Shown piece after piece: positions 16,375-36,352 of a DNA stretch of 64,000 bases. The stretch spans positions 106,341 through 170,340 of the forward strand of contig CAWJKZ010000011.1 in assembly GCA_963843575.1 (NCBI GenBank), given 5' to 3'. Within the stretch, counting starts at the first letter, position 1. The number at the start of each line of letters is the position of its first letter. This stretch comes from an uncultured Acidobacteriota bacterium. GTDB taxonomy: Bacteria; Acidobacteriota; UBA6911. The position numbers were made by a program, and so were the translations under genes. The notes beneath the pieces are model-generated. The model did no database searches. It was given only the letters and a program-made list of their open reading frames with translations, and was not told the origin of the DNA.

Positions 16375-17163
16375 GTGGTCCGTCCCCTAAAGTTGCGGGC
16401 GCACCGTACCGATCTGAGTTGGGGGGGTGCGGTTTTGGAACCTGCCACTTTGAATTGCCCGAACTGCGGGGCGGCGGCGTCGCCGGACAGCACGAGGTGC
16501 GCCTATTGCCTCTCCACGCTCGCGGTGCTGGTCTGCGCGAAGTGTTTCGGCGCCATCTTCTCGGGCATGAAGCACTGTCCCTGGTGCGGGGAGGAGGGCG
16601 GGGCCGCGCGGCCCAAGGCGGATGGTGGGCTGAAATGCCCGCGTTGCGCGAAGCCGCTGGCTCACATCCAGCTCAACGAACACGGGCTCGCCGAGTGCCT
16701 GAGGTGCGGCGGGTTGTGGGTCGACAGCGAAACGCTGCAGAAGGTCTGCGCCACGGCCGAAGATCAGGAGGCGGTGCTCGCAATGGATCGGAGTGCCCTT
16801 CCCGTCGCACCTGAGGGAGCGAAACCCGGCCGAACCTATGTTCCGTGCCCCATGTGTGCGAAGCTGATGAACCGAACGAACTTTGCCGGCTGTTCGGGCG
16901 TGGTCGTCGATTGGTGCAAGCCGCACGGCAGCTGGTTCGACAAGGACGAGCTCCGCCGCATCGTCGAATTCGTGCGCAACGGAGGCCTCAGGAAAGCGCG
17001 GGAACGCGAGAAAGAGCGGCTGAAACAGGAGAGTGACCGTCTGAAGGAGCAGCAGCGACAAGTCGCCCGGCTCGGCAGCGTCGACATTGCCGCTGCCAGG
17101 CAGGCGAACTCGGGCATGGACACGTTTTTCGAAGCCGTTACCCGAATGCTGGCCGACCGTTGA
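16375..17163 (+). CDS. Tandem zinc-ribbon (zf-TFIIB-like) domain protein
   Basis: Two modules CPxC...C..C followed by GLWVDSETL and GSWFDKDELRRI, then a coiled-coil Lys/Glu/Arg-rich tail; start codon uncertain (no in-frame ATG near 5' end; TTG 16435 possible). Confidence 0.6.
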   Translation: MVRPLKLRAHRTDLSWGGAVLEPATLNCPNCGAAASPDSTRCAYCLSTLAVLVCAKCFGAIFSGMKHCPWCGEEGGAARPKADGGLKCPRCAKPLAHIQLNEHGLAECLRCGGLWVDSETLQKVCATAEDQEAVLAMDRSALPVAPEGAKPGRTYVPCPMCAKLMNRTNFAGCSGVVVDWCKPHGSWFDKDELRRIVEFVRNGGLRKAREREKERLKQESDRLKEQQRQVARLGSVDIAAARQANSGMDTFFEAVTRMLADR

Positions 17164-17181
17164 CCGGCGGCCTCCCTCACC

Positions 17182-18495
17182 TCATCCTCGCAGCAAGCGA
17201 TCCAGTGAAAGGATGCTCAGCATCAGCTGGCGCGGGGGATGGTAGTTGTCCTGCCGCGCCACGTGGGGCTGCTGCACCATCTTGCGGCCTGAAAAGAGCA
17301 TGTAACCGGCCTGCCCGAGCTTCCTGCGCGAGAATTTCTCGTCGATTACCCCCTGCGCCATGCCGAAGAAGCGCGCCGCCCACTCGCTGCGCGTGCGCTC
17401 GAAGACCTTCACGCAGGCTACCAGGATTTCGTTGAGCGACCACAACGTCTTCATGTACTGGTACTCGCCGCGGAACCGGAACTCGAGGTCCGTGCCCACC
17501 GGCCGCTCAACAGGCCAGGCGTAGTCCCCCTGGTCGACGTTGACCCATTGCGACAGGCCTCCGTATACCCAGTCCCAACCCACTTCGATGTGGCGGCGGA
17601 TGCGGTCCGCGCCGAGCTCCCACAGCTTGAGGTCGTTGGTGCGTGAGGCTTCGTCCATCACCATCCAGAGCGTTTCGATGGAATGGCCCGGAATACACTT
17701 CGTCTCCTCTCCAGGCGGCCTGCTGAAGTCGTGGTTCAGGTTTTCGTTGTTCAGCCCGATGTCGGGATTGTAGTGCCTGTTGATGACCGCGTCGACGGAC
17801 TGTTGCGCTACCCGCTCGATCTCGGGGTCGCGCCACCGTTTGAGGAACTGGGTGGCGATGTTGAGGTTGACCATCCAGATCCCCTGCGGACGGCAACCCG
17901 GCCCCGGCGTGCCGGGCAGGACCACCGTGGGATCCTCGATGTGCCGGTGGAGCTTCCTGATCAGCTCCACCGCCGTGCGGCGGGATTCTTCGTGCTTTGC
18001 GGCCCAGGCGTACTCGAGCAGCCCTTCGGCCACGAAATACATGCCGTAGACGTCGCCTTCGAATCCCCGGCGCACCTGCCCGTCGCGCGCCAGCATCTCC
18101 GCCCACCAGCCGTCGGCCTGCGGGGCGTGGCGCAGCACGAACCCCCGCGTCCGGGCCGCGATCTCCAGGTGGCGTGGGTTTCTGCCGAAGTTGTTGTACA
18201 GGAAGCTGTAGACCCAGATCGCCCGTCCCTGGAACCAGAGCAGCTTGTCGGAGTGCACGACCGTGCCGTCGTAGTCGAGGCCGTGCATGACGCCCCCGAA
18301 CTCGTGGTCGACGCCGTGCCCGTCCCAAAACGGCAGCACCACCCCGAAGAGCTCGTCATGGTAGCGCTTGCGCAGTTGCGCGAGCGGCAGGCCCGCCAAT
18401 CTGGCGCCTGCCTCGGCCGCGCCTGCAGCTCCGCCCCAGCTGAGCGGTCCCAGCAACCCTGCCCCCGCAGACCCGATGAATGTGCGGCGTTTCAT
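17182..18495 (-). CDS. N-acyl-D-glucosamine 2-epimerase (AGE) family protein, TAT-exported
   Basis: MKRRTFIGSAGAGLLGPL twin-arginine leader; (alpha/alpha)6-barrel AGE-like sequence along the length. Confidence 0.8.
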   Translation of the reverse strand: MKRRTFIGSAGAGLLGPLSWGGAAGAAEAGARLAGLPLAQLRKRYHDELFGVVLPFWDGHGVDHEFGGVMHGLDYDGTVVHSDKLLWFQGRAIWVYSFLYNNFGRNPRHLEIAARTRGFVLRHAPQADGWWAEMLARDGQVRRGFEGDVYGMYFVAEGLLEYAWAAKHEESRRTAVELIRKLHRHIEDPTVVLPGTPGPGCRPQGIWMVNLNIATQFLKRWRDPEIERVAQQSVDAVINRHYNPDIGLNNENLNHDFSRPPGEETKCIPGHSIETLWMVMDEASRTNDLKLWELGADRIRRHIEVGWDWVYGGLSQWVNVDQGDYAWPVERPVGTDLEFRFRGEYQYMKTLWSLNEILVACVKVFERTRSEWAARFFGMAQGVIDEKFSRRKLGQAGYMLFSGRKMVQQPHVARQDNYHPPRQLMLSILSLDRLLRG

Positions 18496-18539
18496 TTCGG
18501 CGCCCCTCCAAAAGCGGCCGACTCTGCTCAATCAAGTGG

Positions 18540-21967: not shown

Positions 21968-22010
21968 CTTTGATCTGCGTTGATCCGCGTCCATCCGCGT
22001 CCGAAAACGT
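21968..22010. repeat. ATCCGCG REP-like element
   Basis: TGATCTGCGTTGATCCGCGTCCATCCGCGTCCGAAAACG downstream of the GH gene. Confidence 0.6.
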
Positions 22011-22038
22011 CATCGTATTCATGTAATTGCTGGTGTAA

Positions 22039-23782
22039 GGTGGTTACGATGAGCTGGTCCGCCTCTCCACCCAGGGGTTTTCTGTTTCTGGTGCTTTTGC
22101 TGCTGCCTTGCTGCTTCGCCTTGACGCAGAAAAAGGAAAACCAGGAACCCGATTTCAAAGTCCCGGTCGACGTCATCGTCGTCAGTGCCGTTGTCACGGA
22201 TCGGGAGGGCGAGCCTGTGCTGGGCCTGGCGGTCGACGATTTCAAAGTATTCGAGGACGGCAAGCCGCAACCGATCCACACGTTTGCCCTCGAGTCCTAC
22301 AAAGCGACACAGTCGATCGATCGAAACGGCCAGAAGGCGCCCGTCGCCGCCGACAGGGAAGAAGCTTCGGAGCCGGCCCAGCCGCGGCTCTTCTCCATCG
22401 TGATCGACGACCTTTCCACGGAACGGGAGCTCTACTACCCGATCACCGAGGCGGTGCAGAAGTTCGTCGACGAGGACCTGCTGCCGGGCGACCAGGTTGC
22501 GATCCTCTCCGCGTCCGGGCGCATCCAGCATCCTTTCACAACCGACAGGCAGCTGCTCCGGGCGGAACTCGGGGAACTCAACAAGAAGCTCAACATGAGC
22601 TCTGTCACCAGGTCGACCTGTCCCATCCTTACGGATCTGCAGGCGCAGAGGATCGCCACCGGCCGGGCGGATCCGGACTCGCTTACCGTGGCGAAGGAGG
22701 AAGCAAAACGCTGCATGGGCGCGCTCGCCGATGCCGCCACCGACCCGGAAAGCGGCAGCCAACTGAAGTTGGGTCTGGCCCTGGATTCCTTCGTCCGCGG
22801 GGCGGCCGTAGGACAATACTATGAGATGCAGGACCGCAACCGCTCCCTGCTTCTCAACCTCCGGCAATACGTCCGGTCCCTGAGGCACTTCGAAGCGAGG
22901 AAGAACGTCGTCCTTTTCTCGGACGGGTTCCTCTTTGAAGAGCTCACTTACGAACTGCAGGACGTCGTCGACCAGGCCCTTAGGGCCGGGGTCGTCCTCA
23001 ACACGGTGGATGCCCGCGGCCTTTACGTCGACATGTTCAAAGCGAGCGACAATCTGAGCAACGTTCCGTGGGAGCTGCTCATCGCCAAAGACCGGTTGCG
23101 CTCGGCCGACACCCGGGAGGCTGCGCAACCCCTCAACATGCTGGCGCACGACACGGGCGGGATCTTCCACGAAAACAGCAACGACCTGCGCGCCGGGCTG
23201 CAGAAGGTCTCGGAGCGGCAGACCCACTTCTACGTCCTGACCTACGCGGCCCCCTCGTCGAGGGCCGACGGCCGCTACCACAAGATCAAGCTCGAGGTCG
23301 CGCGCCCCGGACTGAAGCTCTCGTATCGCCAGGGGTATTACGCCCCGAAGGAGCAGCTGACCTTCGAGAAGCGGAGAAAAGAAGACATTCTCGAGGCCCT
23401 CCACGCCCCCGGAAACGCCAACGAGATACCGATCCGTACCGGCTATGCATCCTACAAGGTCGATGATGTGCGTTACGAGGTCGAACTCGTGACCCAGGTC
23501 GACATCCGGCGCATGAAGTTCGTCGAGGAGGATTCGAGGCGCCGGAACCTGATCAGCGTCGTGGTTGTCGCCTTCGATGAATACGATCGCTATGTCGACG
23601 GCCTACAGAAGGATGTCACCTTCAACCTCACGCCCTCAGGCTACTCCGAGATCCTCGGCCGCGGCTTCGCGTCCAAGGTTGTGTTTCGGGTGCCTCCCGG
23701 CAGATACAAGATCAAGACCGTCGTTCGGGAAAGCGGGGACAGCAAGATAGGATCGCTGACCAAGGGCATCGAGGTCCCGTAG
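22039..23782 (+). CDS. VWFA-related Acidobacterial-domain protein (von Willebrand factor A family)
   Basis: RBS AAGGTGG; signal peptide MSWSASPPRGFLFLVLLLLPCC. N-terminal VxVxVxV..D..G.PV.GL...DF.V.EDGK.Q.I..F architecture typical of the acidobacterial VWFA family, followed by a VWA-like region. Confidence 0.8.
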
Positions 23783-23814
23783 GACGAGGCAGTCAGGAGT
23801 TGGCAGGAGGTCTT

Positions 23815-26265
23815 ATGTCGAACTCAACAATCCGGTTTTGGTTTGCCCGGCCTTTCTGGTGTGTGCTGACGGTTCTCGGGGTCGTTCTGTGCTCGTCGTG
23901 GACTCCCGGGGCATCCTCGCAGGGCGCACCCGCGCAGTCCGATCGCGTCAGCCTTCGGGTCGATGTGGAGCTGATCACGGTCGAGGTCATTGTCCTCGAC
24001 AAAAAGGGACGCCCCATACCGAACCTCAAGCAGGAGGATTTCCAGCTCTTCGAGGACGGAAAGCGGCAGGAGATCGTCACCTTCGCCGAAATCTCCGACG
24101 AGCAGAACCGGGAGGTTCCCACCAGCCTCGCGGACCTCGACGAGGGGGGGCCAAACCGGGGCAAGGTGGTGCTGATTCTCTTCGACGACAGCCACATCAC
24201 CAACGCGCAGCTCTATAACTCGAGGGAATCGGCCGAGAAGTACGTGAAAGAACAGATGCGGCCGAGGGACCTGTTCGCCGTCGCTTCTTACGGCATGTCC
24301 CTGAAGCTACTACAGAACTTCACGCACGACGCCGCCAAGGTGACGGAGGCCATTCGTCGGCCGACCACCTCCTTCGCCAACCAGGCTGCCGAAATGCGGG
24401 GTGGCGGTGCGATGATGCCCGGCCAGGAGTCGATGGGCCGAGGGTCGATGGACCGGGGATCCATGAACCGGTCGAGACCCGACGTGTCGAGCCCGGAGAT
24501 CCGGATGCGGGTCATGTCGTTTTTCCGGGCGCTCAACGTCCTCAGTTCCGCGGTCTCCCCGGTAAGAGGCCGGAAAGCCGTCATCATCTTCTCCGAGGAC
24601 TTCTCGGCAAGCTCCGAGATCCAGACCGAGTTGATGAACACGATAAACTCCGCGAAAAAGGCAAATGTTTCCTTCTACACCGTCGACGTGAGAGGGCTCA
24701 ATACCGGTCCGTCGGTCGGTATTCCCGACCAACGCGGCCGGTCCGGCGCCGACGCGTTGCGGACCGCGTTCTCCCCGGCGCGCTCCATCTTTAGTCGGCT
24801 CGGGTCCGGCATGGTCCTGCCGGGTGCGGGAACCGGGAGCCTCGCGGCATTCTCGTTCGGCCAGCAGGGAGGCGGCCAGACCGGAGGATCGGGCGGGTCC
24901 GGAGGGTCTGGCGGGTCCGGTGGATCTGGCGGGTCCGGTGGATCGGGGGGCTCCGGAGGCTCCGGGACGGGCGGGAGCGGCAGCGGCGGCACAACCCCTG
25001 GCGGGGGGTCCACGGGAGCGAATCCGGGCGGAAACGCCGGGAACAATCCCGGTACCAACACGAACCCCGTGTCGCCCAACTTCAACCCGAACAATGGCGG
25101 CCGGGACTTCAATCGGGAGCAGCAGGACTTCGCCCGATTCTCGCAGCAGACCATCGACAACATGTTGAGGAGCCTGGCGGGCCAGACCGGCGGGGTGGCG
25201 ATATACAACACCAGCGATTTCAACGGGCGGCTCAACGAGGTCACCCGGGAGCTGAACAACTACTACGTTCTCGGATTTCAGTCGAGCAACCCGAAGCGGG
25301 ACGGCGCGTTCCGCAAGCTCAAGGTCAAAACCGAGGTGAAAGCGGAAGTGCGGCACCGGGACGGTTACGTCGACCCGCGTCCCCTTGACGTGCTCGCCGG
25401 GTCCAAAGGGGAAAAGTCGATGCTGAGCGCGATTGCGTCGCCTGCCCTCGCCGTCACGCTTCCGGTAACATTCAGCGCCGCCTACTTCTATGACTCGCCG
25501 GCATTGGCCCGGATACCGGTTACCGCCAGGATCGCCACCTCGGCCCTCGAGCTCAAGAAAAAGGGAGGGCAGCTCGTGGGCGATCTCAACGTGATGGGCG
25601 TCGCCTACGGCGAGGACGGCGGCATCTCGGCCCGCTTCAGCGAGACGCTGCACGTAGCCATAGACAAGGACAACGAGCCCGCCTTCCGTCAGAGACCCCT
25701 CGATTACCGAAACTACTTCAAGCTGCGGCCGGGAAAGTACCAGCTCAAGATCGCGACCGCGGACGAGAAGGGTAAGGTCGGTTCGGCGGAGCAGGCGCTC
25801 GTCGTCCCACCCTCGAACCCGGGCGAATTGGCGGCGAGCAGCCTGGTGCTTGTGCAGCAGGTCGCGCAACTTCCGGCACTGATCCAGGATCTGCAGGTCA
25901 AACTGCTGGATGACAGCGATCCCCTGATCTACAAAGGGGTGCAGATCACCCCCGCGGCGGAGAGCCAGGTGCCCGTGGGGAGTCCCATCAACATCGTCTT
26001 CAAGCTCTACAACCTGAGCGACAACGCGCAGGAACGGAAGCTGACGGCCGAGGCCCGCCTGACCGATGAGAAGGGCTCAATCCACACCCTGCCGCCGATA
26101 CCTCTGGAACCTTACCTGTATCCGACCGGGAAAACCGAGGCCATGGTCGGCCTCCGCCTGACCTTCGCGGAGGCGCTTGCCGGAACATACAAACTGGAGA
26201 TCGCGACTTCAGAGGGCACGTCCAGCCGCTCCATCTCCCTCCACACCACCCTCCTGTACAAATAG
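23815..26265 (+). CDS. VWFA-related Acidobacterial-domain protein with Gly/Ser-rich linker (paralogue)
   Basis: RBS GGCAGGAGG. Same N-terminal module (VDVELITVEVIVLDKKGRPIPNLKQEDFQLFEDGKRQEIVTF). Internal low-complexity linker (GGS)n..GTGGSGSGG..PGGNAGNNPGTNTNP at ~24870-25110, encoded by a 9-bp-period DNA repeat. Confidence 0.8.
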   Translation: MSNSTIRFWFARPFWCVLTVLGVVLCSSWTPGASSQGAPAQSDRVSLRVDVELITVEVIVLDKKGRPIPNLKQEDFQLFEDGKRQEIVTFAEISDEQNREVPTSLADLDEGGPNRGKVVLILFDDSHITNAQLYNSRESAEKYVKEQMRPRDLFAVASYGMSLKLLQNFTHDAAKVTEAIRRPTTSFANQAAEMRGGGAMMPGQESMGRGSMDRGSMNRSRPDVSSPEIRMRVMSFFRALNVLSSAVSPVRGRKAVIIFSEDFSASSEIQTELMNTINSAKKANVSFYTVDVRGLNTGPSVGIPDQRGRSGADALRTAFSPARSIFSRLGSGMVLPGAGTGSLAAFSFGQQGGGQTGGSGGSGGSGGSGGSGGSGGSGGSGGSGTGGSGSGGTTPGGGSTGANPGGNAGNNPGTNTNPVSPNFNPNNGGRDFNREQQDFARFSQQTIDNMLRSLAGQTGGVAIYNTSDFNGRLNEVTRELNNYYVLGFQSSNPKRDGAFRKLKVKTEVKAEVRHRDGYVDPRPLDVLAGSKGEKSMLSAIASPALAVTLPVTFSAAYFYDSPALARIPVTARIATSALELKKKGGQLVGDLNVMGVAYGEDGGISARFSETLHVAIDKDNEPAFRQRPLDYRNYFKLRPGKYQLKIATADEKGKVGSAEQALVVPPSNPGELAASSLVLVQQVAQLPALIQDLQVKLLDDSDPLIYKGVQITPAAESQVPVGSPINIVFKLYNLSDNAQERKLTAEARLTDEKGSIHTLPPIPLEPYLYPTGKTEAMVGLRLTFAEALAGTYKLEIATSEGTSSRSISLHTTLLYK

Positions 26266-26370
26266 GGGACGGACCAGGAGAAGCGCTTTATTGTCAATTG
26301 TTTATAGATAATTCAGGCTCCAAATTGGCCCTTATTTGAGGTTTTTGGGCCTGTTTTTCTCAATTAAGCC
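26265..26370 (+). repeat. Novel ~108-bp element, copy A (head GGGGACGGACC, tail hairpin)
   Basis: Starts on the stop codon of the VWA gene; tail CTTATTTGAG-GTTTTTGGGCCTGTTTTTCT-CAATTAAG. Confidence 0.7.
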
Positions 26371-26400
26371 ACCAGGCAGTGGCACCGGCGGTGATTCGTT

Positions 26401-26507
26401 GCCTTATCTTAAAAAAAGAGGCCCAAAAATCCGAAATAAGGCTCTCTTTTCGCAGGAATATTCTCGTAAAGAGTTACAATAGTTAGCTTTGTTTAGGTCC
26501 GTCCCCT
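26401..26507 (-). repeat. Novel ~108-bp element, copy D (inverted)
   Basis: Reverse complement: GGGGACGGACC...GCCTTATTTCGGATTTTTGGGCCTCTTTTTTTAAGATAAGGC. Confidence 0.7.
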
Positions 26508-26555
26508 TTTTGAGATTTTCTGGGGTGTTTTTTGTCAATTAAGGTGCTGGGATTT
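26508..26555 (+). repeat. Tail-only fragment of the element
   Basis: TTTTTGAGATTTTCTGGGGTGTTTTTTGTCAATTAAGGTGCTGG resembles the tail of copy A. Confidence 0.5.
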
Positions 26556-26573
26556 GGCGAAGGTCGGTGACGT

Positions 26574-26681
26574 GGTGCTTATTTCAAGAAAATGAGGCCG
26601 AAAATTCAAAATAAGGCACTATTTTGGCCCAAAAAAAGTCGTAAGCTATTGAAAGCTATATGTTTGCTTTGGTCCGTCCCC
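26574..26681 (-). repeat. Novel ~108-bp element, copy E (inverted)
   Basis: Reverse complement: GGGGACGGACC...GTGCCTTATTTTGAATTTTCGGCCTCATTTTCTTGAAATAAGCACC; its head abuts ATG 26682. Confidence 0.7.
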
Positions 26682-27419
26682 ATGGCGTTGGGGCAGCAGG
26701 CGGATCAGGGCAGTTTTGGGTCTAAGTTTTTCGATCAGCTGCAGGCCATTTTCGGCCGGTTCCAGAATTCCGAACTCGACCGGGTCTTCGCACAGTCCAG
26801 GCCGATTCAGTGCTCCGAACTCGTCGCAGGCAAGGGAGAGTGGCGCCCGGTTGCCTTCTTCAATGAAAACCGCAAACTGGGGGACTGGTGCAAGGAGAGC
26901 CTGGAGGAAGTGAAAGCCGACCTGGCCGTGTACACCTTCAAGGGGGAGTGCAGCGGGGAGCAGGGGACCGTGCAACTGAGCACGGAGTTCCCGACCACCG
27001 CAGGAATTGAGGAATACAACCAGCAGAGAATCGACCTCGGCAAGGTCGACGTCACCGTTAACGACCCGGTCCCGGTCGTTTTCAACTCCAGGACATCAAC
27101 CTACACGTTCAATCTCCCCTACCTCTTTAAGTCCGGCCAAGAGGGGAGCATGAATCTCTACAGCTTCGCTGCGCCGGATAGAAACGCGGCCTATGCCAGA
27201 GAGGTGACAAGCCGGTGGGAATGCAAGGCAGTCTCCTCGAGCGACGTGACCTATCGATTTCTGATCTGCCGGGCCAACACGGTCCCGCGCAGCACTATCC
27301 GGAAGAACGAACGGTGGGAGCCATCCTTCGGGGCATCCGCCTATTTCATCCTCTCCGACGGCACGGAGGCTCAGACGAGCGTGAAACTGTCGTTTGAAGA
27401 CGCCGACACCCCGAAATGA
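26682..27419 (+). CDS. Hypothetical protein
   Basis: 245-aa ORF from MALGQQADQG; the longer ORF from 26592 would read through repeat E. No recognisable domain, and the start is uncertain. Confidence 0.4.
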   Translation: MALGQQADQGSFGSKFFDQLQAIFGRFQNSELDRVFAQSRPIQCSELVAGKGEWRPVAFFNENRKLGDWCKESLEEVKADLAVYTFKGECSGEQGTVQLSTEFPTTAGIEEYNQQRIDLGKVDVTVNDPVPVVFNSRTSTYTFNLPYLFKSGQEGSMNLYSFAAPDRNAAYAREVTSRWECKAVSSSDVTYRFLICRANTVPRSTIRKNERWEPSFGASAYFILSDGTEAQTSVKLSFEDADTPK

Positions 27420-27518
27420 AGTAATCCTCGCATCACCCTGGCCGAAAAAAAACGCAAGAGCCTTGCCTGCGCGCGTCTCTCTACTGAAACAGCTGATCCC
27501 TGAAACAGGAGGTAGAAA

Positions 27519-28304
27519 ATGAGAGTCGCCCTGATCCTCGGAATGTCTCTGTTGACGATTGGCTATGTGGCCGCGCACGGCCCTCAGCCCGGGGTGGAGG
27601 TCCTGGTCGATGGTAACCCGGTGCCGAATTATTTCCACCGGGGCACAACCTACCTGGAAGCCGCAAAAGGAAAGGAATACGCGATACGCATCACGAATCC
27701 GATCGGAACCCGGGTCGCCGTGGCCCTCTCGGTGGACGGATTGAACACGATCGATGCGCGTCACACCGAGGCCCGGCTGGGCCGCAAGTGGGTCCTGGCG
27801 CCTTACGAATCCATCGTTATCAGCGGGTGGCAGACAAACGCAAAGCAGGCCAGGCGTTTCTTCTTCACGAACGAGGAGCGGTCCTACGGCGCGTGGCTGG
27901 GTCAGACGGAGGATCTCGGGGTCATCAGCGCGGCCTTTTTCCGTGAAAGAACCCAGCGGTTCTATGCCCAGGATGGTTCCCTCTCGGCGCCGGAAGAACC
28001 GGCGCGGAAGGATTCCGGGACCGCCGCCCCCGCGCGGGCCAAACAGAACGAGTCCGGCGTTGCCGCACCGGCGGACGAGGCCGGTTACGCCGCTACCGGG
28101 ATCGGGCAACGCGTGGACCATGAGGTCCGGCAGGTCCACATGGACCTCGAGGACAAGCCCTTTGCCCTGGTCAATCTCCGCTACGAGTTCAGGCCTGCTC
28201 TGGTCAGGCTCGGCGTTGTTCCGCCGCCGAGCATCGATGATCCGCTGGCTCGTCGTGAAAGGGCCAAAGGATTTCGCGGGACCGGCTTCTGTCCTGAACC
28301 GTAA
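27519..28304 (+). CDS. Hypothetical secreted protein
   Basis: RBS AGGAGGTAGAAAATG; signal peptide MRVALILGMSLLTIGYVAAHG; 261 aa; no known domain. Confidence 0.6.
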   Translation: MRVALILGMSLLTIGYVAAHGPQPGVEVLVDGNPVPNYFHRGTTYLEAAKGKEYAIRITNPIGTRVAVALSVDGLNTIDARHTEARLGRKWVLAPYESIVISGWQTNAKQARRFFFTNEERSYGAWLGQTEDLGVISAAFFRERTQRFYAQDGSLSAPEEPARKDSGTAAPARAKQNESGVAAPADEAGYAATGIGQRVDHEVRQVHMDLEDKPFALVNLRYEFRPALVRLGVVPPPSIDDPLARRERAKGFRGTGFCPEP

Positions 28305-28370
28305 TTGGTCGTTTCCGGGCGGCTTCTCCCGAATCCGGGCCTGAGATCGACGGCTAGATGCTGGACGCGT

Positions 28371-29321
28371 CTACGGCCCTCTATCTTCTCGCCCTCTGGT
28401 TCCGGTTTCGAGGATGGCTCCTCGGCCCTGGAACGCGCAGCCCAGCAGGGGGGCGTCCTCGCCGAGAGTGCTGCGGACGATGCGCACGCCCGAGCTGACG
28501 GAGTGAAACGAGTAGCGGGGCAGGATGCGGCGGGCCGGCTCGAGCAGCAGGTCGCCGGCCTTCGCCACGCTTCCGCCGACGACGTAGAGGTCGATGTTGA
28601 GGATCATCGCCATGGTCGCGACGGCCAGGCCCAGCGCTTCCCCGGCTTCCCGCAGCACCTGCCGGGCGCGCTCGTCGCCTTCCCGTGCCAGCTGCGTGAT
28701 GTGTTCGCCCGACAACGCCCGGCCGGTTTCCCGGTAGCGCCGCTCCAGTCCCGGCCCGCCCAGGTACGTCTCAACGCAGCCCCGGGAACCGCAGGGGCAG
28801 GGTGCGCCGGAGCGATCGAGCGTGATGTGGCCGACTTCCCCGGCGAGGTCCCGCACCCCGCGAAAGACCTGCCCATCGACCACGATGGCCGCGCCGACGC
28901 CGGTCCCCGCGACGATGTAGACCAGCGCGGGAGCGCCGTGCCCGGCCCCGTAGTAGAATTCCCCCAGGGCCGCCGATTTTGCGTCGTGGTCGAGGCTGAC
29001 GGGCAGGCGGAGGCGGTCGGCCAGCATCTGGCGCAGCGGGGTGTTGTGCAGCCCCTGGAGTTCGTGGGGTTCCAGCACCGTGCCCGCGGCGTGATCGACG
29101 GGCCCGGGCGCGCATATGCCGAGCGCGCTGACCCGCTCGCCGCCGGGAAGTTCCGTCTCGAGCTCCGCCACGCAGAGGGCGATCCGTTCAACCACGGACT
29201 CCGCGCCCAGGTGCGCGTCGGTGGAGAGGCGCCGCCGCGCCACGATGCGGTTTTCCGGATCGATCAGCCCGAGCGCAGTCTTGGTGCGCCCCAGGTCGAC
29301 GCCGACGACCCAGCTGCTCAT
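28371..29321 (-). CDS. ROK family sugar kinase (glucokinase-like)
   Basis: MSSWVVGVDLGRTKTALGL N-terminal ATPase motif; ROK zinc motif CPCGSRGCVETY; GxGxGxA motifs. Confidence 0.85.
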   Translation of the reverse strand: MSSWVVGVDLGRTKTALGLIDPENRIVARRRLSTDAHLGAESVVERIALCVAELETELPGGERVSALGICAPGPVDHAAGTVLEPHELQGLHNTPLRQMLADRLRLPVSLDHDAKSAALGEFYYGAGHGAPALVYIVAGTGVGAAIVVDGQVFRGVRDLAGEVGHITLDRSGAPCPCGSRGCVETYLGGPGLERRYRETGRALSGEHITQLAREGDERARQVLREAGEALGLAVATMAMILNIDLYVVGGSVAKAGDLLLEPARRILPRYSFHSVSSGVRIVRSTLGEDAPLLGCAFQGRGAILETGTRGREDRGP

Positions 29322-29348
29322 AGAGTTCCCCATCCCCGGCCGGCAGCG

Positions 29349-29759
29349 TCAGCGCGCGAAGGCGTCGGCGCCGAGCCGGGCGAGGACCATGTCCTCCCTC
29401 TCGGGGAGCCCGCTCACCCCGACGGCGCCGATCACCTGGCCCTCGAAAACGATCGGGACGCCGCCGCCCCATGCGGTGTAGCGCAGGTCGCCGTAGTTGG
29501 TCATCGGGTACCTGTCCGCGCGCCACGTGTCGCCGATTGCCGCCGTCTCCTTCTGTTCGCGCGCGGCCGTGAACGCCTTGTTGATCGCGACCGTGATCGA
29601 CGGCAGGCGGCACCCGTCGGTGCGCAGGAACGCGAGCAGTTCGCCCTGGGCGTCGGCCACGGCGATCGCCGCGCCCTTGCCGGCCCGCTCGAGCTCGTCC
29701 CGGATGGCCTCGACGATGCGCTGCGCGTCGCTGTGGGAAAGATGATTGCGCTGGTACAT
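29349..29759 (-). CDS. GlcG/HbpS-like heme-binding protein (DUF336)
   Basis: MYQRNHLSHSDAQRIVEAI...GGGVPIVFEGQVIGAVGVSG, characteristic of DUF336. Confidence 0.75.
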   Translation of the reverse strand: MYQRNHLSHSDAQRIVEAIRDELERAGKGAAIAVADAQGELLAFLRTDGCRLPSITVAINKAFTAAREQKETAAIGDTWRADRYPMTNYGDLRYTAWGGGVPIVFEGQVIGAVGVSGLPEREDMVLARLGADAFAR

Positions 29760-29838
29760 GCTCACCCCCTCGGTTGACTTGCCTTGCGGATCCGCCTGCG
29801 GCCCCATGGCAGGGCTTTTCCGGGGAAGAACGACCCGC

Positions 29839-30988
29839 TCAGGCGCCTCGCACCTCCGCGACCCGCACCCAGCGCCGCTCGCCGGAGGAACGCTGGGCGG
29901 CCTCCATGATCTCCTGCACCCGCAGCCCGTCCAGAAACCCGGGGGACGCGGGCCCGTCTTCGGCGACGGCCTTCAGAGAACGAATGTTGCGCCTCGACGA
30001 ACGTACCGACGAATCCCGGCGCCATGGTCCAGTCGGGGACCTTCTGGCCCGCGTAGCGCCCGACGGTCTGCACCTTGCGGAAGCCGCTCAAGCCGCCCAG
30101 CGGCTGGTCGGGGTCGCGCGTGTCGAAAACGTGCAGCCAGCTCGGCTCGTCCGCCCTGAAGCGCAGCGCCCCCTTTTCGCCGTAGATCTCGACCGCGAGG
30201 TCGTTCGTGGCGCCGGTCCCCATGCGCGACACCTCCACGCTCCCGAGCGCGCCGCTCGCCATCCTCAGCTGCAGGATCGCCAGGTCGTCCACGTCCACCT
30301 CGCCGACGTCGTGTGCGCCCGCCTGCACCGGCCGCTGCTTGATCAGCGTCTCCATCGTCGCCAGCACCGCGTCGAAATCGCCGAGCAGGCAGTACAGGAG
30401 GTCGAGCACGTGCGAACCGAGGTCGAACAGCGCCCCGCCGCCGGCGCCTTCCTTGCGCAGCCGCCAGGAGAGCGGCTTGTCGGGCTTTATGTAACTCGAA
30501 CGGTAGAAGCACGCCCGAAACGAAAACACGCGGCCAAGGAAGCCCTCGGAGACGAGCTGCCGGGCGCGGGTGATCGCCGGGAAGAAACGGAAGTTGAAGC
30601 CGAGCTGCGCCTTCACCCCGGCCTGTTCCACGGCGCGGACGATCTCGCGGCCCTCGGCGACGGTCAGGGCGAGCGGCTTCTCGCAGTAGATGTGCTTGCC
30701 CGCCGCGGCCGCGGCGGCGATCGCCTCCGCGTGCAGGGCGTTCGGCAGGCAGATGTCGACGACGTCGACATCGTTGCGGGCGAGCAGGTCGCGGTAGTCG
30801 GCGGCCCCGACGGGGCAGCCGGCTTCGCGCGCGGCCAGTGCGGCGGCCTCGGGGCGGCGCCTGGACACGCCGACGAGCCTCACGAGGTCGGAAGGGAACC
30901 CGTAGTGAAAGGGGATGGCGCGGTAGGCGAGCGCGTGCACGCGGCCCACACCGCCGTAGCCCACGATCGCGACGCCGAGCTTCCTCAT
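29839..30988 (-). CDS. Gfo/Idh/MocA family oxidoreductase (C-terminal frameshift)
   Basis: MRKLGVAIVGYGGVGRVH Rossmann N-terminus and EKPLALT motif. After ...FVGTFVEAQHSF the family-typical C-terminus (GFLDGLRVQEIMEAAQRSSGERRWVRVAEVRGA*) continues in the +1 frame near 29995. The 4-bp ATGA overlap with the next gene suggests an operon. Confidence 0.7.
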
Positions 30989-31833
30989 GGCCGGTTCCCC
31001 TGGGGCTTGAGTCCGCGCTCGTCGCGCCAGCGCTCGCTCGCCTCGTCCATTACCCCCCGGAGCTTTTTCACGGCGGCCTGGATGTCCCCCGTGCCGGGGA
31101 CGAGCTTTCCTTCCGGACCCTTCAGCAGCGGCGACGAGAACTCGCCGACGGTCATGCCCGCCTCGATGAATTCGGCGACGTTGCCCGCGTTGAGGCCGCC
31201 GTCTTCCATCAACTCGATCCGGCCCTCCATGCCGGCTGCCGCGATCATTTCGTGGAGCCGGCGGACGCTGGCGAGGACGATCGGGTCGATCGTGTGGGGG
31301 CTTTTCCCCGCCTGCGGCTTTACCCAGAACGGGGCGCGGCTTTCGTACTCGATGATGTCCACGTAGGGATGGATGTACTGCTCGAAAAAAACCACCGGGC
31401 AACCCTGCCAGGCCCAAACCCCGACCTTCAGCTCGAGCTTCTCCTTGACGTACGTGATGTTCTGCATCAGGGTCTCGCCGGTGGTCTCGATCGGCAGGCT
31501 GATCAGGTCGACCCCCAGGTCGGCGAGCTGATTGAAGACGTCGAAGCTGGGACGGACCATCTGGAGCTGCGCCTCGATCTCGAGCGACGTGCTCTTGCGC
31601 ACCCCTTCGAGGATGTCGAAACCGCCGCGCGGCATGCCGAAGTCCATGTACTTGCCGTCCCGGACCTCGACGTGGAGCCAGTCGACGCCGGCCTCCTCCA
31701 GGTCGCGCACCTGCGCCCCCAGCACCGAGTAATCGGCCCAGAACAGCCCCGCCGCGATCTTCGCCCGCCGCCCAATCTTCCCTATCGTGTCGCTCACGCC
31801 GCCAATTACAGCCCCCCCCTCCCCCCCTGTCAA
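30985..31833 (-). CDS. Ribulose-phosphate 3-epimerase family protein (divergent)
   Basis: VDWLHVEVRDGKYMDFGMP and C-terminal EDGGLNAGNVAEFIEAGMTVGEFSS match RPE/allulose-6-phosphate-epimerase core motifs. The ORF is longer than typical RPE, so the true start is probably internal. Confidence 0.5.
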   Translation of the reverse strand: MTGGEGGAVIGGVSDTIGKIGRRAKIAAGLFWADYSVLGAQVRDLEEAGVDWLHVEVRDGKYMDFGMPRGGFDILEGVRKSTSLEIEAQLQMVRPSFDVFNQLADLGVDLISLPIETTGETLMQNITYVKEKLELKVGVWAWQGCPVVFFEQYIHPYVDIIEYESRAPFWVKPQAGKSPHTIDPIVLASVRRLHEMIAAAGMEGRIELMEDGGLNAGNVAEFIEAGMTVGEFSSPLLKGPEGKLVPGTGDIQAAVKKLRGVMDEASERWRDERGLKPQGNRP

Positions 31834-31840
31834 GCAGTAA

Positions 31841-31946
31841 TGGGGACGGACCAGGACAACCCACGCTTTTGCAGTGAATTGTAGGGAATTTCGACCCTAA
31901 AAACGGGCTTATTTCACGTTTTTGGGCCTGTTTTCTGCAAATAAGC
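31841..31946 (+). repeat. Novel ~108-bp element, copy B
   Basis: GGGGACGGACCAGGACAACC...GGGCTTATTTCACGTTTTTGGGCCTGTTTTCTGCAAATAAGCGG. Confidence 0.7.
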
Positions 31947-32296
31947 GGTAAGACGCGTTCCGCCTCGGACGGGGCAGATTCGGGAGGGTCGGTGCAGATG
32001 TCGCGCGGGACGAACGACCGGATCGCGAAGCCGCGTCAGCCTGACAGGAGTAAGATGAATCCCGGTACCTGTCTACTCTATCCAATCGGCCAAGGCCATC
32101 CGGTCTTCGGATTGCAGCTCACCAGGACAGCGTTGGAGCCGCTGCTTCTGAAGACACTCAGCGCGCACCGGAATCCAGGCGATGGCGCGGCTTTGGCGGG
32201 CCGCACGGCGCAGGTATGCGGAGCGCCTCACACAAAATGGGAAATTGCCGGAGTGGTAATATTCCCGGAGATCTGCAGCACAGATGGAGGTCTGGT

Positions 32297-33355
32297 ATGG
32301 GTGGAACATATCGCATGTCGATTGCCGTTGCCGTCTTGATCCTCACGATAGCGCCTTCGACCAGGTCACGAACCGCGGAAGCTCCGTATCACTTCCTTGC
32401 CAAGATCGACGTCGGCGGCGAAGGGGGGTGGGATTACGCTTCGGTTGATGCGGCCGCGCGCAGGCTCTATGTCACGCATGCGACCAAGGTCGTTGTGATC
32501 GACCTCGACAGTCACAGGGTGATCGGCGAGGTGGTCGACACTCCCGGGGTCCACGGTTTTGCGCTGGCGCCGGACCTCGGGCTGGGGTTTGCGAGCAACG
32601 GCCGGGAGAACAAGGCCAGCATCGTGGATCTAAAGACGCTCGCGACCCGGATGAAGGTCGACACGGGGGCGAACCCCGACGCGATTCTGTACGTCCCCGG
32701 CGTGCAGGAGGTGTACACGTTCAACGGGACCGGCAAGTCCGCGACGGTATTCGAGGCAAAATCGGGCCAAGTGATCGCCACGATTCCTCTGCCGGGGAAG
32801 CCTGAATTTGCCCAGTTGGACGTGAAGGCCGGGCGGATCTACAACAACATCGAGGACACGAACGAAGTCGTGGCGATCGACATCCGAAAGCACGAGGTGG
32901 TCGCCAGATGGCCGATCGCGCCGGGCGAAGGCGCATCCGGCATGGCCATCGACCTCGCCAATCACCGGCTGTTCCTCGGGGCCGACAAGCTCATGGTCGT
33001 GCTGGACAGCACATCGGGCAGGGTCGTCACCACGGTTCCCATCGGTCCCGGCGTCGATGCCAATGCCTATGACCCCGCGACCAGGCTGGTCTTCGCCTCC
33101 TGCGGCGGCGACGGCACCGTGACCGTCGCTCGCGAGGACGGCCCGGACAAGCTGACGGTCGTCCAGGTGCTTCAGACCGCGAGGGGCGCCCGCACCATGA
33201 CGCTCGACCCCAAAACGCACAATATCTACCTTGCGGCGGTCGACTACGAAGCTCCCGCCGCGCCGGCGGCCCAGCCCGCTCCAGGTCAGAGGCCCCGGCC
33301 GAAGCCGGTGCCGAATTCCTTCAAGGTCCTCGTCTATGGAACCGAGGCGCAGTAA
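32297..33355 (+). CDS. YVTN-family beta-propeller repeat protein, secreted
   Basis: Signal peptide MGGTYRMSIAVAVLILTIAPS; repeated ~40-aa YVTN/YncE-like units (RLYVTHATKVVVIDLDSHRVIG, RIYNNIEDTNEVVAIDIRKHEVV, etc.). Confidence 0.75.
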   Translation: MGGTYRMSIAVAVLILTIAPSTRSRTAEAPYHFLAKIDVGGEGGWDYASVDAAARRLYVTHATKVVVIDLDSHRVIGEVVDTPGVHGFALAPDLGLGFASNGRENKASIVDLKTLATRMKVDTGANPDAILYVPGVQEVYTFNGTGKSATVFEAKSGQVIATIPLPGKPEFAQLDVKAGRIYNNIEDTNEVVAIDIRKHEVVARWPIAPGEGASGMAIDLANHRLFLGADKLMVVLDSTSGRVVTTVPIGPGVDANAYDPATRLVFASCGGDGTVTVAREDGPDKLTVVQVLQTARGARTMTLDPKTHNIYLAAVDYEAPAAPAAQPAPGQRPRPKPVPNSFKVLVYGTEAQ

Positions 33356-33411
33356 GAGAGACCGGGGGAAGTACTCGAAGCGGAGTCCCTGCCTTTCTTG
33401 AAGAGGTCAGG

Positions 33412-34428
33412 ATGAACGGATTCCAGCGAATCCGGGCTGCACTGCGCGGTGAGGCGCCGGACTGCACGCCTGTGATGCTGCACAGCTTCATGCTTGCCGC
33501 CGCGGAATCCGGCATTCCGATGTGGCGCTATCGACGGGACCCGGCGGAGATCGTCCGCTGCCTGATCGAATTTGTGGAGCGGTACGGCACCGACGGGGTA
33601 TTGCTCGACATCGACACCGCAACGCTCGCGGGCGCACTCGGGATCCCGGTCGAGTACCCCGACGACCAGCCGGCTGTCTGCCGGCGGCCGAAACTGGCCG
33701 ATGTGTCCGAGGTCGACCGGTTGGAACCGGTCGATGTCCTCGCCTTTCCGGGCGTGCAGGTGTGGCTCGAGGCGGCGAGGCTGTTGAGCCGCTACTTTCG
33801 GGGCGAAATATACGTGCGCGCGAACTGCGACCAGTGCCCGTTCTCTCTTGCCTCCATGATGTGCGGCTCGGAACCCTGGATGCTTGCGTTGGTCGACCCG
33901 TCCAGGCACGTGCACGTGCGCCGCCTGCTCGCGTACTGCACTCGGGCAACGGTCCAGTTTGTCCGGCTCATGTCCCAAACGGGTGCCGACATGCTCTCCA
34001 ACGGCGATAGCCCCGCGGGCCCCGAACTGATCTCTCCGCGATTGTACCGGGAATTCGCGCTGCCGTACGAAACGCAGGTCGCAGCCGCGGCCCACGAGAC
34101 GGGGCTGCCGTACGCCCTTCACATATGCGGATCGACCGAGCAGATCCTGCAGGACATGGTCTCGACCGGCGCCGAGGCGCTCGAACTGGATTACCGGACC
34201 GACTGCCGCATGGCCTGCTCCCTTCTGAAGGGAAGGGCTGCCTTCATCGGGAACATCGACCCCACGGGCGTCCTGGCCTTGGGTGATCCGCGGCTGGTCG
34301 AGGCGAAGACGCGCGAGCTGGTTGCTGCCTTCGAAGGCAATCCCCGCTTCATCCTGAACGCGGGCTGCGCAATCCCCCCCTCGACTCCACCCGCCAATGT
34401 GCGGGCCCTGATCCGGGGACGGACCTAG
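33412..34428 (+). CDS. Uroporphyrinogen decarboxylase (URO-D) family protein / MtaA-CmuA-like methyltransferase
   Basis: URO-D-like TIM-barrel sequence over the full length (MNGFQRIRAALRGEAPD..., ALHICGSTEQILQDMVSTGAEALELD). Confidence 0.7.
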   Translation: MNGFQRIRAALRGEAPDCTPVMLHSFMLAAAESGIPMWRYRRDPAEIVRCLIEFVERYGTDGVLLDIDTATLAGALGIPVEYPDDQPAVCRRPKLADVSEVDRLEPVDVLAFPGVQVWLEAARLLSRYFRGEIYVRANCDQCPFSLASMMCGSEPWMLALVDPSRHVHVRRLLAYCTRATVQFVRLMSQTGADMLSNGDSPAGPELISPRLYREFALPYETQVAAAAHETGLPYALHICGSTEQILQDMVSTGAEALELDYRTDCRMACSLLKGRAAFIGNIDPTGVLALGDPRLVEAKTRELVAAFEGNPRFILNAGCAIPPSTPPANVRALIRGRT

Positions 34429-34583
34429 AAAAGAAGGACGCAGATGAACGCGGAGAAACGCGGATCAGCACTGACGATTCGCTCTGCCAGCGTTTGTCCG
34501 CGTCCCACTACGCTTGCGGTTGATTGGGAACGTCATCAGGCTCTAGTATGAGCCGGGATCAAACACGTATTGAGGAGGGGCGT

Positions 34584-35834
34584 ATGACGGGCCTTGATTT
34601 GACCGGTGAACACCTCCAGGTGACGCGGCGCCATTTTTTCCAGCTTGGGGGCGCAGCAGTGGCAGCCTGGAACGTCTCCGGGCTCGCCGCCGGCCAAGCC
34701 GCCATTGATCCTCAACTGGAGGAGGCCGTTGCCAAACTGCAGTACCTGACTCCGCCCGACCGGGTTGGCACCATCCTGGACAAAGGGAAGGCAGGCGTGG
34801 CGAAACTTCCGCCGGAGAGGCTTCATGAAATCGGGCTGGTCCCGGAAACCTGGTCACTTGACGTCGTCGGCGACCCCACGAGCAACTGCGTCGTGGAGCA
34901 GCCCCTCTCGCGTGCACTCGGCAACGCCCTGGACTGGAAGGGCCTGATGAGGTTGGCCGATAAGCATGCGACCCGCTTCATGCAGGTCTGCTCGTGCACA
35001 AACGGCGCCGATCCTTTTCACATGAGCCTTTGGGAAGGGGTCCCGCTCCGTGAAGTCATCTGGCTAGTCCGTCCCAAAGACAATGTCCGACGGGTCTATT
35101 ATCAAAGCTATCACCCCGAGAACCTGCCCCCGTTTCAAAGCTCTCTGCCGCTGGGTCAGATTCTGGAAAACCCGCCAGGGCAGATGCCGGTCATTCTTGC
35201 CTACAAGCGGAATGAGCAGGTTATCCCCGCCTCTCATGGCGGCCCCGTTCGGATGATCGTTCCGGGTGCGTACGGCAGCAAGTGCATTAAATGGGTTCAG
35301 CGCGTTGTCCTGACCAACGAATTCAAGGCGAACGATTCAGACGCGGATCTGAACAACGACCCGGAAAACGCGCTGAAGACAAGGGCCAGGTTTGTCAATG
35401 CTCCGAAGGAGGCCGCGTCCGGAACGCCCTTTGCCTTGACCGGCATGGCGCAGGTCGGCGTTTCGGGTCTCAGCAAGGTTCAGTTCTGCGTGCATTCTCA
35501 GCAGGGCCCATGGCCGGCCGATGACCCGTATCGCGCCAAGGCGGACTGGAAGGACTGCACCATCCTGCCGCCCCCCAACAACTGGGGAGGAGGGCTTCCG
35601 CAGGGGAAACTGCCCGCCACAGCCCAGACCGATCCGACGACCGGCAAGCCTTTCCAATGGCCCATGCGGTACGCGATCGTCCACTGGGCGAAATTGGTCG
35701 CCGGCCTGGCTCCCGGCACATACGAACTGTGCTGCCGCACGATCGACGATAACGGCATCGCGCAGCCGATGCCCCGTACGTTACCGAGGACAGGCTTCAA
35801 CGAGATTCAGCGTGCCTCGCTTGTCGTGAAGTGA
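34584..35834 (+). CDS. Sulfite-oxidase-family molybdopterin oxidoreductase, TAT-exported
   Basis: RBS GAGGAGGGG; leader TRRHFFQLGGAAVAAWNVSGLAAG; Moco-domain-like core (PVRMIVPGAYGSKCIKWVQRVVLTNE) plus a C-terminal Ig-like dimerisation-type region. Confidence 0.7.
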   Translation: MTGLDLTGEHLQVTRRHFFQLGGAAVAAWNVSGLAAGQAAIDPQLEEAVAKLQYLTPPDRVGTILDKGKAGVAKLPPERLHEIGLVPETWSLDVVGDPTSNCVVEQPLSRALGNALDWKGLMRLADKHATRFMQVCSCTNGADPFHMSLWEGVPLREVIWLVRPKDNVRRVYYQSYHPENLPPFQSSLPLGQILENPPGQMPVILAYKRNEQVIPASHGGPVRMIVPGAYGSKCIKWVQRVVLTNEFKANDSDADLNNDPENALKTRARFVNAPKEAASGTPFALTGMAQVGVSGLSKVQFCVHSQQGPWPADDPYRAKADWKDCTILPPPNNWGGGLPQGKLPATAQTDPTTGKPFQWPMRYAIVHWAKLVAGLAPGTYELCCRTIDDNGIAQPMPRTLPRTGFNEIQRASLVVK

Positions 35835-35870
35835 TTGAACCCACTGTAAACCGCCCTCCAGCGCGGTCGT

Positions 35871-35980
35871 GGGGACGGACCACGGCAAGCCATTATCTCA
35901 CTATCAATTAGCAGATTTCAGGACCAGGAAACAGGCCTTATTTCGTGTTTTTGGGGGCGGTTTTCTTGAGATAACGGCGG
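35871..35980 (+). repeat. Novel ~108-bp element, copy C
   Basis: GGGGACGGACCACGGCAAGCC...GGCCTTATTTCGTGTTTTTGGGGGCGGTTTTCTTGAGATAACGG, 37 bp after the stop of the molybdoenzyme gene. Confidence 0.7.
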
Positions 35981-36352
35981 GGGACATGTCTGTCGCGGCC
36001 ATGCTGATGAGCGGAACGCCGCCGGCAGTGCTGCGCAAAGGCCCGCCCTCGCCGCTCGTGGAAGAGAGCGACGAGGAGAAGAACCCAGCGACAGAGATCT
36101 AGCCCAAGGGCGGGCGGCCCGGACCGGGAAACGCCGAATCGGTGATCATTGACTTCGAAGGCGTGCAGAACCGCATCGTGGCCGTTTCCATTCCGTCCGG
36201 CGATCACTCGAACCTGCGCGCGGCTGCTTCCGCAACCCTTGCCTTGGTTTTGCTTTTACCTTTTTTTCTTATCTTCCGTTGCTTTTTCTGGCCTATGCTG
36301 GGGGACATCAGCCTTCACAATCCTGATATTTGTCATCAAACGGGAGACCGCA

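Follow-up and report, generated by a model that had tools for sequence, protein, structure and literature searches.

The window analyzed here, a stretch of 64,000 nucleotides from contig CAWJKZ010000011.1 of an uncultured Acidobacteriota bacterium, carries a family of short interspersed repeats among otherwise unexceptional genes. Pfam annotation of essentially all convincing open reading frames (ORFs) in the window identified ordinary genes of metabolism and none for a transposase, an integrase, or an HUH endonuclease, and a scan for tRNA and tmRNA genes returned none. Six copies of a repeat of ~108 bp lie between these genes, each beginning with the 11-bp head GGGGACGGACC and ending with a tail that contains an imperfect palindrome. 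Three of the copies, together with a tail-only fragment, make up a cluster at 26265–26681, which is the spacer between the gene at 23800–26265 and the start codon (ATG, 26682–26684) of the called protein P0102. The features are listed below by window position, with copy B given in its parts.

16281–16387, minus strand: copy D, a full ~108-bp unit found by profile, pattern, and alignment
26265–26372, plus strand: copy A, left unit of the first dimer
26373–26400, no strand: GC-rich spacer of the first dimer, which separates the tails and is paralogous to the spacer at 26546–26574
26401–26506, minus strand: copy A2, right unit of the first dimer
26507–26545, plus strand: tail without a head, the left unit of a second dimer in truncated form
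26575–26681, minus strand: copy A3, with its head directly against the ATG at 26682
31842–31948, plus strand: copy B, between divergent operons
31842–31852, plus strand: head of copy B, an example of the invariant 11-mer GGGGACGGACC
31869–31881, plus strand: position of the integration host factor (IHF) consensus in copy B (unit bp 28–40)
31908–31945, plus strand: tail of copy B (CTTATTT, N4, TTTTTGGGCCTGTTTT, N3–4, AAATAAG), an imperfect palindrome with phased A/T tracts
34415–34425, plus strand: head-only occurrence, forming the last four codons (RGRT) of a URO-D-like gene
35871–35976, plus strand: copy C, with its head 36 nt past the stop codon of the Mo-oxidoreductase gene at 34524–35834

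Copies in the window

The head 11-mer occurs exactly eight times in the window, compared to 0.14 occurrences expected from shuffled sequences, and the composite of head, 55 arbitrary nucleotides, and CTTATTT occurs six times, compared to an expectation of zero. A nhmmer profile built from the copies identified six full-length matches with E-values from 2e-27 to 5e-24, with all remaining matches at noise level, and the six copies can be aligned without a single gap. Compositionally, the units have a GC content of 39–49 per cent, whereas their flanks have 51–70 per cent.

The initial annotation of this stretch had described a common 11-nt head, a tail fragment, and an AT-rich spacer that starts on a stop codon (TAG, 26263–26265) and ends against the ATG of the next gene, and all of these descriptions hold. 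Its five full copies are likewise recovered (with copy B starting at 31842 rather than at 31841), but it had missed a sixth, copy D. It had also pointed out that copies B and C have the same orientation and bracket the operon at 32216/32297–35834. They do, and in our reading they simply fill two intergenic gaps around one operon.

Anatomy of the unit

Including the eight copies from five other metagenomic or metagenome-assembled genome (MAG) contigs described below, the family consists of 14 full copies in six contigs. The head is exact in 11 of the 14 and has one mismatch in the other three, and in most copies it conforms to an extended family consensus, GGGGACGGACC-N4-CAA. The distance between the head and CTTATTT is exactly 55 nt in 13 copies and 56 nt in the remaining one (L4m). 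The AT-rich interior between them is nearly unconserved, with 23–54 per cent identity between copies compared to 26 per cent expected from composition. Within the window, interiors are 28–52 per cent identical, and two copies of the same genome resemble each other no more than two copies of different genomes do. The unit then closes with CTTATTT-N4-TTTTnGG…ATAAG. Because single copies have no conserved sequence after ATAAGC, the 3′ boundary of the unit is sharp. The two ends of the unit differ, the head not being complementary to the …ATAAGC of the tail, and no consistent ORF runs through the 14 copies.

Two further features mark the unit. Across the family, the IHF consensus WATCAANNNNTTR has its best match at unit bp 28–40 (offset 27 from the head), where the mean score is 5.93 of 9, compared to a mean of 3.02 over all offsets; four copies, including A and A3, score 8 of 9, and the others score 5–7 (copy B, 6 of 9). 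Between approximately bp 45 and bp 105, A/T tracts recur with a period peak of 10.5–11 bp, which, as far as it can be read from the sequence, is the signature of intrinsically bent DNA. These tracts surround the imperfect palindrome given above for copy B.

Copies in other genomes

In a scan of 185,579 species-representative genomes with a strict motif, one Acidobacteriota MAG was matched, at two loci (L001, which has a dimer, and L002). A scan of metagenomes matched two contigs, L003 and L004, the latter with 42 per cent GC and a dimer, and no viral contig matched the pattern. Contigs retrieved through homologs of window proteins provided two more copies, whose variant motifs fall outside of the strict pattern: one in L006 (8081–7978, with the head GGGGTCGGACC) and one in L008 (423–534). 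The prediction that more copies would be found in other genomes is thus borne out. Searches with nhmmer and two covariance models across the window and nine loci (175 kb) returned no further full copy and added the head-only match at 34415.

The element has no match in a plasmid collection searched with distant blastn. A full-text literature search for the head motif retrieved only unrelated papers (primers), and nothing resembling the element was found in the literature on transposable elements of the miniature inverted-repeat type (MITEs) or repetitive extragenic palindromes (REPs) in Acidobacteria. The family is real and has no match in the resources searched (Rfam, plasmid and viral collections, and the searchable literature), in agreement with its earlier designation as undescribed, and it is of a broadly known kind, the small interspersed repeats of bacteria.

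RNA structure or double-stranded DNA

The tail had initially been described as a hairpin with a conserved loop and a covarying stem, and the element was accordingly proposed to be a structured RNA. Our tests of this proposal draw on only 14 sequences, with RNAalifold and the unbiased pairing test applied to 13. RNAalifold, which had been suggested as the check for covariation, returned no consensus helix in either the body or the tail. In the unbiased test, 69.2 per cent of the stem cells of the tail hairpin are paired, compared to 65.6 per cent in column shuffles (40 of 500 shuffles are as good), and 31 per cent are unpaired. On an alignment fitted by a covariance model, the pairing is 68.9 per cent compared to 64.1 per cent (5 of 500 shuffles reach the observed value), and the covariation score, reached by 8 of 500 shuffles, is marginal by the tool's own calibration; since the model was built on the tail hairpin, such realignment biases the test in the hairpin's favor. 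The covarying stem is also not confirmed in the form claimed: all six window copies have the same 5′ arm, CTTATTT, whereas the 3′ arm ArATAAG varies without compensation, and copy-specific complementarity is confined to the inner two to three pairs in about half of the copies. Given that the pairing barely exceeds that of shuffled columns, the complementarity of the tail is mostly that of the conserved imperfect palindrome.

We therefore consider it quite improbable that the element is a structured small RNA or a cis-acting RNA of which the tail hairpin is the functional part. Besides the covariation score on the fitted alignment, such an RNA would account for the copy-specific extension of the palindrome beyond CTTATTT/AAATAAG in A, A3, B, and L3 and for two copies that fold better than shuffled sequences (z = −2.3 and −2.6). 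However, z-scores of single-sequence folds on either strand range from −2.6 to +2.2 and scatter around −0.5; no promoter or terminator patterns frame the units, which occur in both orientations relative to neighboring genes; and the element has no Rfam match at the gathering score, with relaxed thresholds returning only sub-threshold noise of a hairpin type. As the initial annotation had anticipated for a new element, it matches no RNA family catalogued in Rfam.

The tail could alternatively act as a bidirectional intrinsic terminator or insulator composed of an A-run, a GGCC stem, and a T-run. Many copies do contain AAAAcaGGCC ... GGCCTGTTTT, single-sequence folds select this motif in B, C, D, and L6, and the tail faces the stop codon of the upstream gene in D, L2, and L8. 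Yet the loop would be ~16 nt long and the GC stem only 4–6 bp, and a terminator scan identified nothing inside a unit, its only nearby match being in the dimer spacer (26386–26403). Pairing of the A-run–GGCC with the GGCC–T-run is no better than column composition predicts (61 per cent compared to 62 per cent), leaving this alternative helix without support, and a terminator would leave both the head and the fixed 55-nt spacing unexplained. We find this explanation hardly credible.

Promoter readings fared no better. A promoter scan of 10.5 kb identified one site, in copy C and pointing at a gene end, and inspection of the reverse-strand alignment by eye revealed no consistent −35/−10 elements; a sigma-70 promoter was accordingly rejected. 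A sigma-54 promoter was rejected because GG-N10-GC fits copies B and D only.

From these results, we conclude that the conserved features are most plausibly recognized as double-stranded DNA by proteins, and not as RNA structure. In some copies, the inner palindrome may have a role as a hairpin or cruciform.

Gene context, orientation, and dimers

All 14 copies are intergenic. In the window, copy A overlaps the gene at 23800–26265 by a single base, its first head base being the G that ends the gene's TAG stop codon. The head of copy D (16377–16387) faces a Zn-ribbon gene (16375–17163, plus strand), and its tail ends 36 nt past the stop codon of an AMP-binding/PP-binding gene (13555–16245). The head of copy B is 8–45 nt from the start of a minus-strand sugar operon, at an rpe-like gene (30985–31833). 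Between this head and the start of the rpe-like gene is a C-run, CCCCCCCCTCCCCCCC (31815–31830), which reads as a long run of G on the coding strand, just upstream of the start codon.

Units are arranged either singly or as tail-to-tail dimers with the heads outward. Dimers are found in three genomes (window, 26265–26506; L001, 5887–6119; L004, 1965–2216). The window dimer, formed by A and A2, is 242 bp long and has a terminal inverted repeat of 17 nt with 94 per cent complementarity. Next to it, the tail fragment begins at the CTTATTT position and abuts the head of A2. Because the succession of tail fragment, spacer, and A3 is paralogous to that of A tail, spacer, and A2 over its whole length, spacer included, the cluster is best described as one dimer followed by a second dimer that is truncated on the left. 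The halves of dimers are 28–50 per cent identical in the variable region.

In ten copies (A3, B, D, both L001 units, L002, L003, L006, L008, and L4m), the head is 0–107 nt from the start of a gene that reads away from it, whereas the heads of A and C lie against a stop codon. For many copies this agreement is trivial, since they are located in divergent intergenic regions. Among the informative tandem contexts, the head faces the downstream start in three of four single copies, which is not significant. Separately, we observed that the cumulative GC-skew minimum of the window falls at 31000–36000, within the 16–36 kb stretch that holds all six copies, and that five of the six point head-first away from ~27–31 kb, although the copies are too few and the window is too short to tie this to replication.

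The copies had also been proposed to mark cassette boundaries. Under the explicit form of this idea, the units would be site-specific recombination sites (attC or att half-sites) delimiting cassettes, with the head as the crossover core. An invariant short core accompanied by an IHF-like site and arm-like repeats does recall the arms of phage att sites, and copies do occur at operon boundaries. However, the window encodes no integrase and no other tyrosine or serine recombinase, the cores RYYYAAC/GTTRRRY are absent, the unit as a whole has no dyad symmetry, the heads are not palindromic, and the window copies have mixed orientations (−,+,−,−,+,+) rather than forming a co-oriented array. We regard recombination sites as very improbable, and the proposed marking of cassettes is not upheld.

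Signs of insertion and turnover

The gene at 26682–27419 (plus strand) belongs to a conserved hypothetical family of secreted proteins, whose homologs have an N-terminal signal peptide ending in ...AQQ. The window protein and a relative with 86 per cent identity have no signal peptide and start with MALGQQ. In the window, the absence of the signal peptide is attributable to copy A3, which abuts the ATG. Upstream of this ATG the frame remains open through the A3 head (...MKAICLLWSVPMALGQQ), and in-frame reading through A3 would supply a new hydrophobic N-terminus, MKAICLLWSVPMALG, followed by QQ. The comparison with homologs and the open frame together show that the element has replaced the original 5′ end of the gene. 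Upstream of its gene, the relative with 86 per cent identity has uncalled DNA over at least 534 nt; another, with 81 per cent identity, has an upstream spacer of only 55 nt and a different neighbor.

The head-only motif at 34415–34425 is immediately followed by a stop codon, and the similarity of the URO-D-like protein to its homologs ends at the same place. The motif is a remnant that replaces the last codons of this gene. In contrast, the exact GGGGACGGACC at 50759–50769 (plus strand) is inside of an ATP-sulfurylase/APS-kinase gene, where it encodes SGTDL; here the coding sequence probably matches the head by coincidence, without being a remnant of the element.

The gene pair at 21980–26265 is shared with L005–L007. 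The unit is located upstream of the pair in L006 and downstream of it in the window, and no unit was seen with the pair in L007 or in the short contig L005. A wider synteny between the window and L007 over 17–26 kb was considered and rejected, because tblastn shows that the two have only this gene pair in common.

Possible origin and function of the repeat

The reading that we favor, albeit tentatively, is that the element is a non-autonomous DNA repeat that resembles a transposon end, is mobilized in trans, forms MITE-like dimers, and has possibly been co-opted by its hosts. The MITE-like label of the initial annotation remains the best available class, even though neither a target duplication nor a transposase was found. 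The element would be an interspersed repeat acting at the DNA level, through putative protein partners and not through RNA structure. In favor of this reading are the sharp boundaries and intergenic placement of the 14 copies, the dimers in three genomes, the signs of insertion and turnover described above, the peak of the IHF match, the period of the A/T tracts, the low GC content of the units, and a geometry like that of the IS10 outside end. The anatomy, copy number, placement, dimers, and lack of RNA structure are observed, whereas the binding proteins and the mobility are inferred.

Under the favored reading, a single unit would represent one transposon end, with GGGGACGGACC (mostly as GGGGACGGACC-N4-CAA) serving as the terminal recognition sequence, an IHF-type bending site at bp 28–40, and a subterminal block at bp 55–105 in which helix-phased A/T tracts surround the imperfect palindrome (CTTATTT ... 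GGGCC ... AAATAAG). Two units joined tail to tail with their heads outward would form a MITE-like dimer of ~240 bp. We envision that a trans-acting transposase or recombinase, encoded outside of the window, binds the head, that IHF or HU folds the arm back, and that the head-binding protein also touches the subterminal block. Such folding would account for a constant spacing around an intervening sequence that can vary freely. The units would have inserted into intergenic DNA or gene ends. Since copies saturated with substitutions elsewhere still retain the motifs and their spacing, proteins probably continue to bind them in place, and the copies may have been co-opted to provide bent, AT-rich DNA where genes begin and end.

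Several observations weigh against mobility. The presence/absence comparisons involve distant relatives (55–80 per cent protein identity) with which synteny is largely lost. No target-site duplication (a direct repeat of 2–9 bp) was found in the flanks of the 14 copies, and neither inspection by eye nor a k-mer search revealed a conserved flanking target motif. Single asymmetric units, which have no terminal inverted repeat, outnumber the units in dimers (eight compared to six). A search of the 64-kb window and of the neighborhoods of the L001 and L002 copies turned up no gene for a transposase or integrase and no HUH domain. The IHF site is known only as a match to the consensus. Two points weigh most. 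There is no sign of a recent burst, given that identity within a genome is no higher than between genomes, and decayed copies are almost absent, which argues that selection acts on every copy where it lies and does not act on mobility alone. Neutral decay to the divergence observed should also have yielded indels and broken heads; that it has not would mean that each copy, or each active lineage, is under continuing selection for its head, tail, and spacing.

Such selection feeds the main alternative, which we consider real but rather unlikely, that each copy serves its host as a cis-regulatory or architectural site, a maintained nucleoprotein module that organizes transcription at gene boundaries. 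A specific factor would bind the head, IHF or HU would bind bp 28–40, and the tail would contribute bent DNA and the palindrome; the module could, for example, be enhancer-like or promoter-proximal and serve catabolic operons. The family would have spread slowly and long ago. Such a site would fit the intact head, tail, and exact spacing amid nearly random positions, the equal identity within and between genomes, the scarcity of degenerate copies, and the proximity of the head to gene starts reading away in the great majority of copies, together with the three of four single copies in tandem contexts whose head faces the downstream start. It would also fit the uncalled DNA upstream of the same truncated gene in the relative with 86 per cent identity and the predominance of sugar and polymer catabolism genes and secreted proteins among the neighbors. 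However, no consistent −35/−10 or −24/−12 elements are found in either orientation, the heads of A and C lie against stop codons, copies face the downstream gene in no fixed orientation, one of them destroys a gene's signal-peptide-coding end, and conservation of the element does not extend to the gene pair shared by L006, L007, and the window. The host site and the favored mobile repeat are compatible if an old mobile family was co-opted.

A stronger version of the host-site idea, to which we assign a somewhat lower likelihood still, is that the copies constitute a genome-wide set of selected binding sites, at which a head-binding protein (e.g. a domesticated transposase or recombinase) and IHF or HU would form wrapped complexes at operon boundaries. 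It is similarly doubtful, but conceivable, that such a set would be no decaying selfish DNA but a novel form of punctuation of the chromosome, or of regulation, in Acidobacteriota. If so, this punctuation would be recognizable by its invariant 11-mer, exact 55-nt spacing, and helically phased A/T tracts.

Other repeats and loci

A segment of ~0.6 kb is duplicated 5.3 kb apart in the window (57105–57680 and 62425–63000, with 300 nt at 99 per cent identity). Each duplicate is followed by GGTGACGGACC, which is one mismatch away from the element head (57667 and 62986). The 135-aa plus-strand ORF of the segment looks spurious, and a small acidic ORF on the minus strand is more plausible. We considered the 135-aa ORFs (at 57183 and 62502) as an IS200-like TnpA and rejected them, because they have no Pfam match and their translation is junk-like. 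The surrounding region (54000–64000) has several kb-scale stretches without convincing ORFs and contains two other repeats, one at 61033–61104 and 63473–63544 (76 per cent) and one as an inverted pair at 54185–54238 and 57892–57945 (80 per cent).

A different repeat, which has a 31-bp perfect inverted repeat, GTAACGGGGACAGTCACCATAACCCCCAAAC, is found in L008 (539–657), where it adjoins the 108-bp unit, as well as in L009 (9869–9934) and L006 (18657), and is absent from the window. The window does contain a match to the nhaA-I RNA (RF03057) at 47784–47838 on the plus strand (48.3 bits, above the gathering score of 37), with a gene of the sulfotransferase family (48178–49419) ~340 nt downstream. 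It also has two paralogous gene pairs (13555–18531 and 43949–47387), each consisting of an AMP-binding/PP-binding enzyme resembling nonribosomal peptide synthetases and a GlcNAc-2-epimerase-like gene.

Comparison with known repeat systems

The closest parallel to the unit's layout is the outside end of IS10, in which transposase contacts +7 to +23, an IHF site is located at approximately +28 to +42, and, after IHF has folded the arm, subterminal transposase contacts are made beyond the bend (PMC3159471). The element, with an IHF site assigned by consensus match, has the same order of terminal recognition sequence, IHF site (in IS10/Tn10, ~bp 28–42), and subterminal block. Like MITEs, it is short, non-coding, multi-copy, and intergenic, and its dimers have inverted terminal heads. 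Unlike MITEs and transposon ends, it has no target-site duplication and no cognate transposase in the window or around the L001 and L002 copies; inverted ends are restricted to the dimers, most copies are single and asymmetric, and the copies are far more diverged than those of typical MITE families.

Terminal inverted repeats of 26 bp and a TA duplication set Correia elements apart from our element. The Correia elements of Neisseria (CREE/NEMIS) resemble our element in being intergenic, ~100–150 bp long, and near gene starts, and in having an IHF site in the body, which in our element is a consensus match. They differ in that their copies are highly similar and confined to Neisseria, and they share no sequence similarity with the element. 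They have been reported to create promoters and to bind IHF (PMC2649163).

REP units are 20–40 bp long, with the base of the stem immediately adjoined by a GTAG or CGTC tag (PMC3733652). Like the element, REPs and bacterial interspersed mosaic elements (BIMEs, RIB-RIP) occur as singletons and inverted dimers in intergenic DNA; the combination of palindromic units with an IHF site in BIME-1 and the long persistence of REPs in place also recall the element. Nevertheless, we rejected an assignment to the REP/REPIN-RAYT system, since the unit is 108 bp long, 55 nt separate its head from the palindrome, and we saw no RAYT gene. Additionally, the halves of REPINs co-evolve, whereas the halves of the element's dimers are only 28–50 per cent identical and no master sequence is apparent within a genome. 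Integron attC sites were rejected because the core sites are absent, the ends are not complementary, the orientations are mixed, and the window has no integrase.

The ERIC/IRU (enterobacterial repetitive intergenic consensus/intergenic repeat unit) sequences of enterobacteria are intergenic repeats of ~127 bp, with imperfect palindromes, no known transposase, and positions that vary between species. They are palindromic over their whole length, are much more conserved than the element, and have no invariant terminal 11-mer.

The element departs in defining features from MITEs, REPs/REPINs, Correia elements, and attC sites. What sets it apart is an unusual pattern of conservation, in which an invariant terminus and exact spacing enclose a free interior and divergence is equal within and between genomes. 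Such conservation implies that a specific partner binds the DNA and that the nucleoprotein complex has a defined geometry. In Acidobacteriota, which are abundant in soil, almost no small non-coding or mobile elements have, to our knowledge, been described. The partner would bring to light either a new transposition system whose ends are asymmetric or a system by which the host marks the boundaries of operons. In the meantime, the motif provides a clean annotation marker for these genomes, and the element explains odd starts and ends of adjoining genes, such as the signal-peptide-less gene at 26682.

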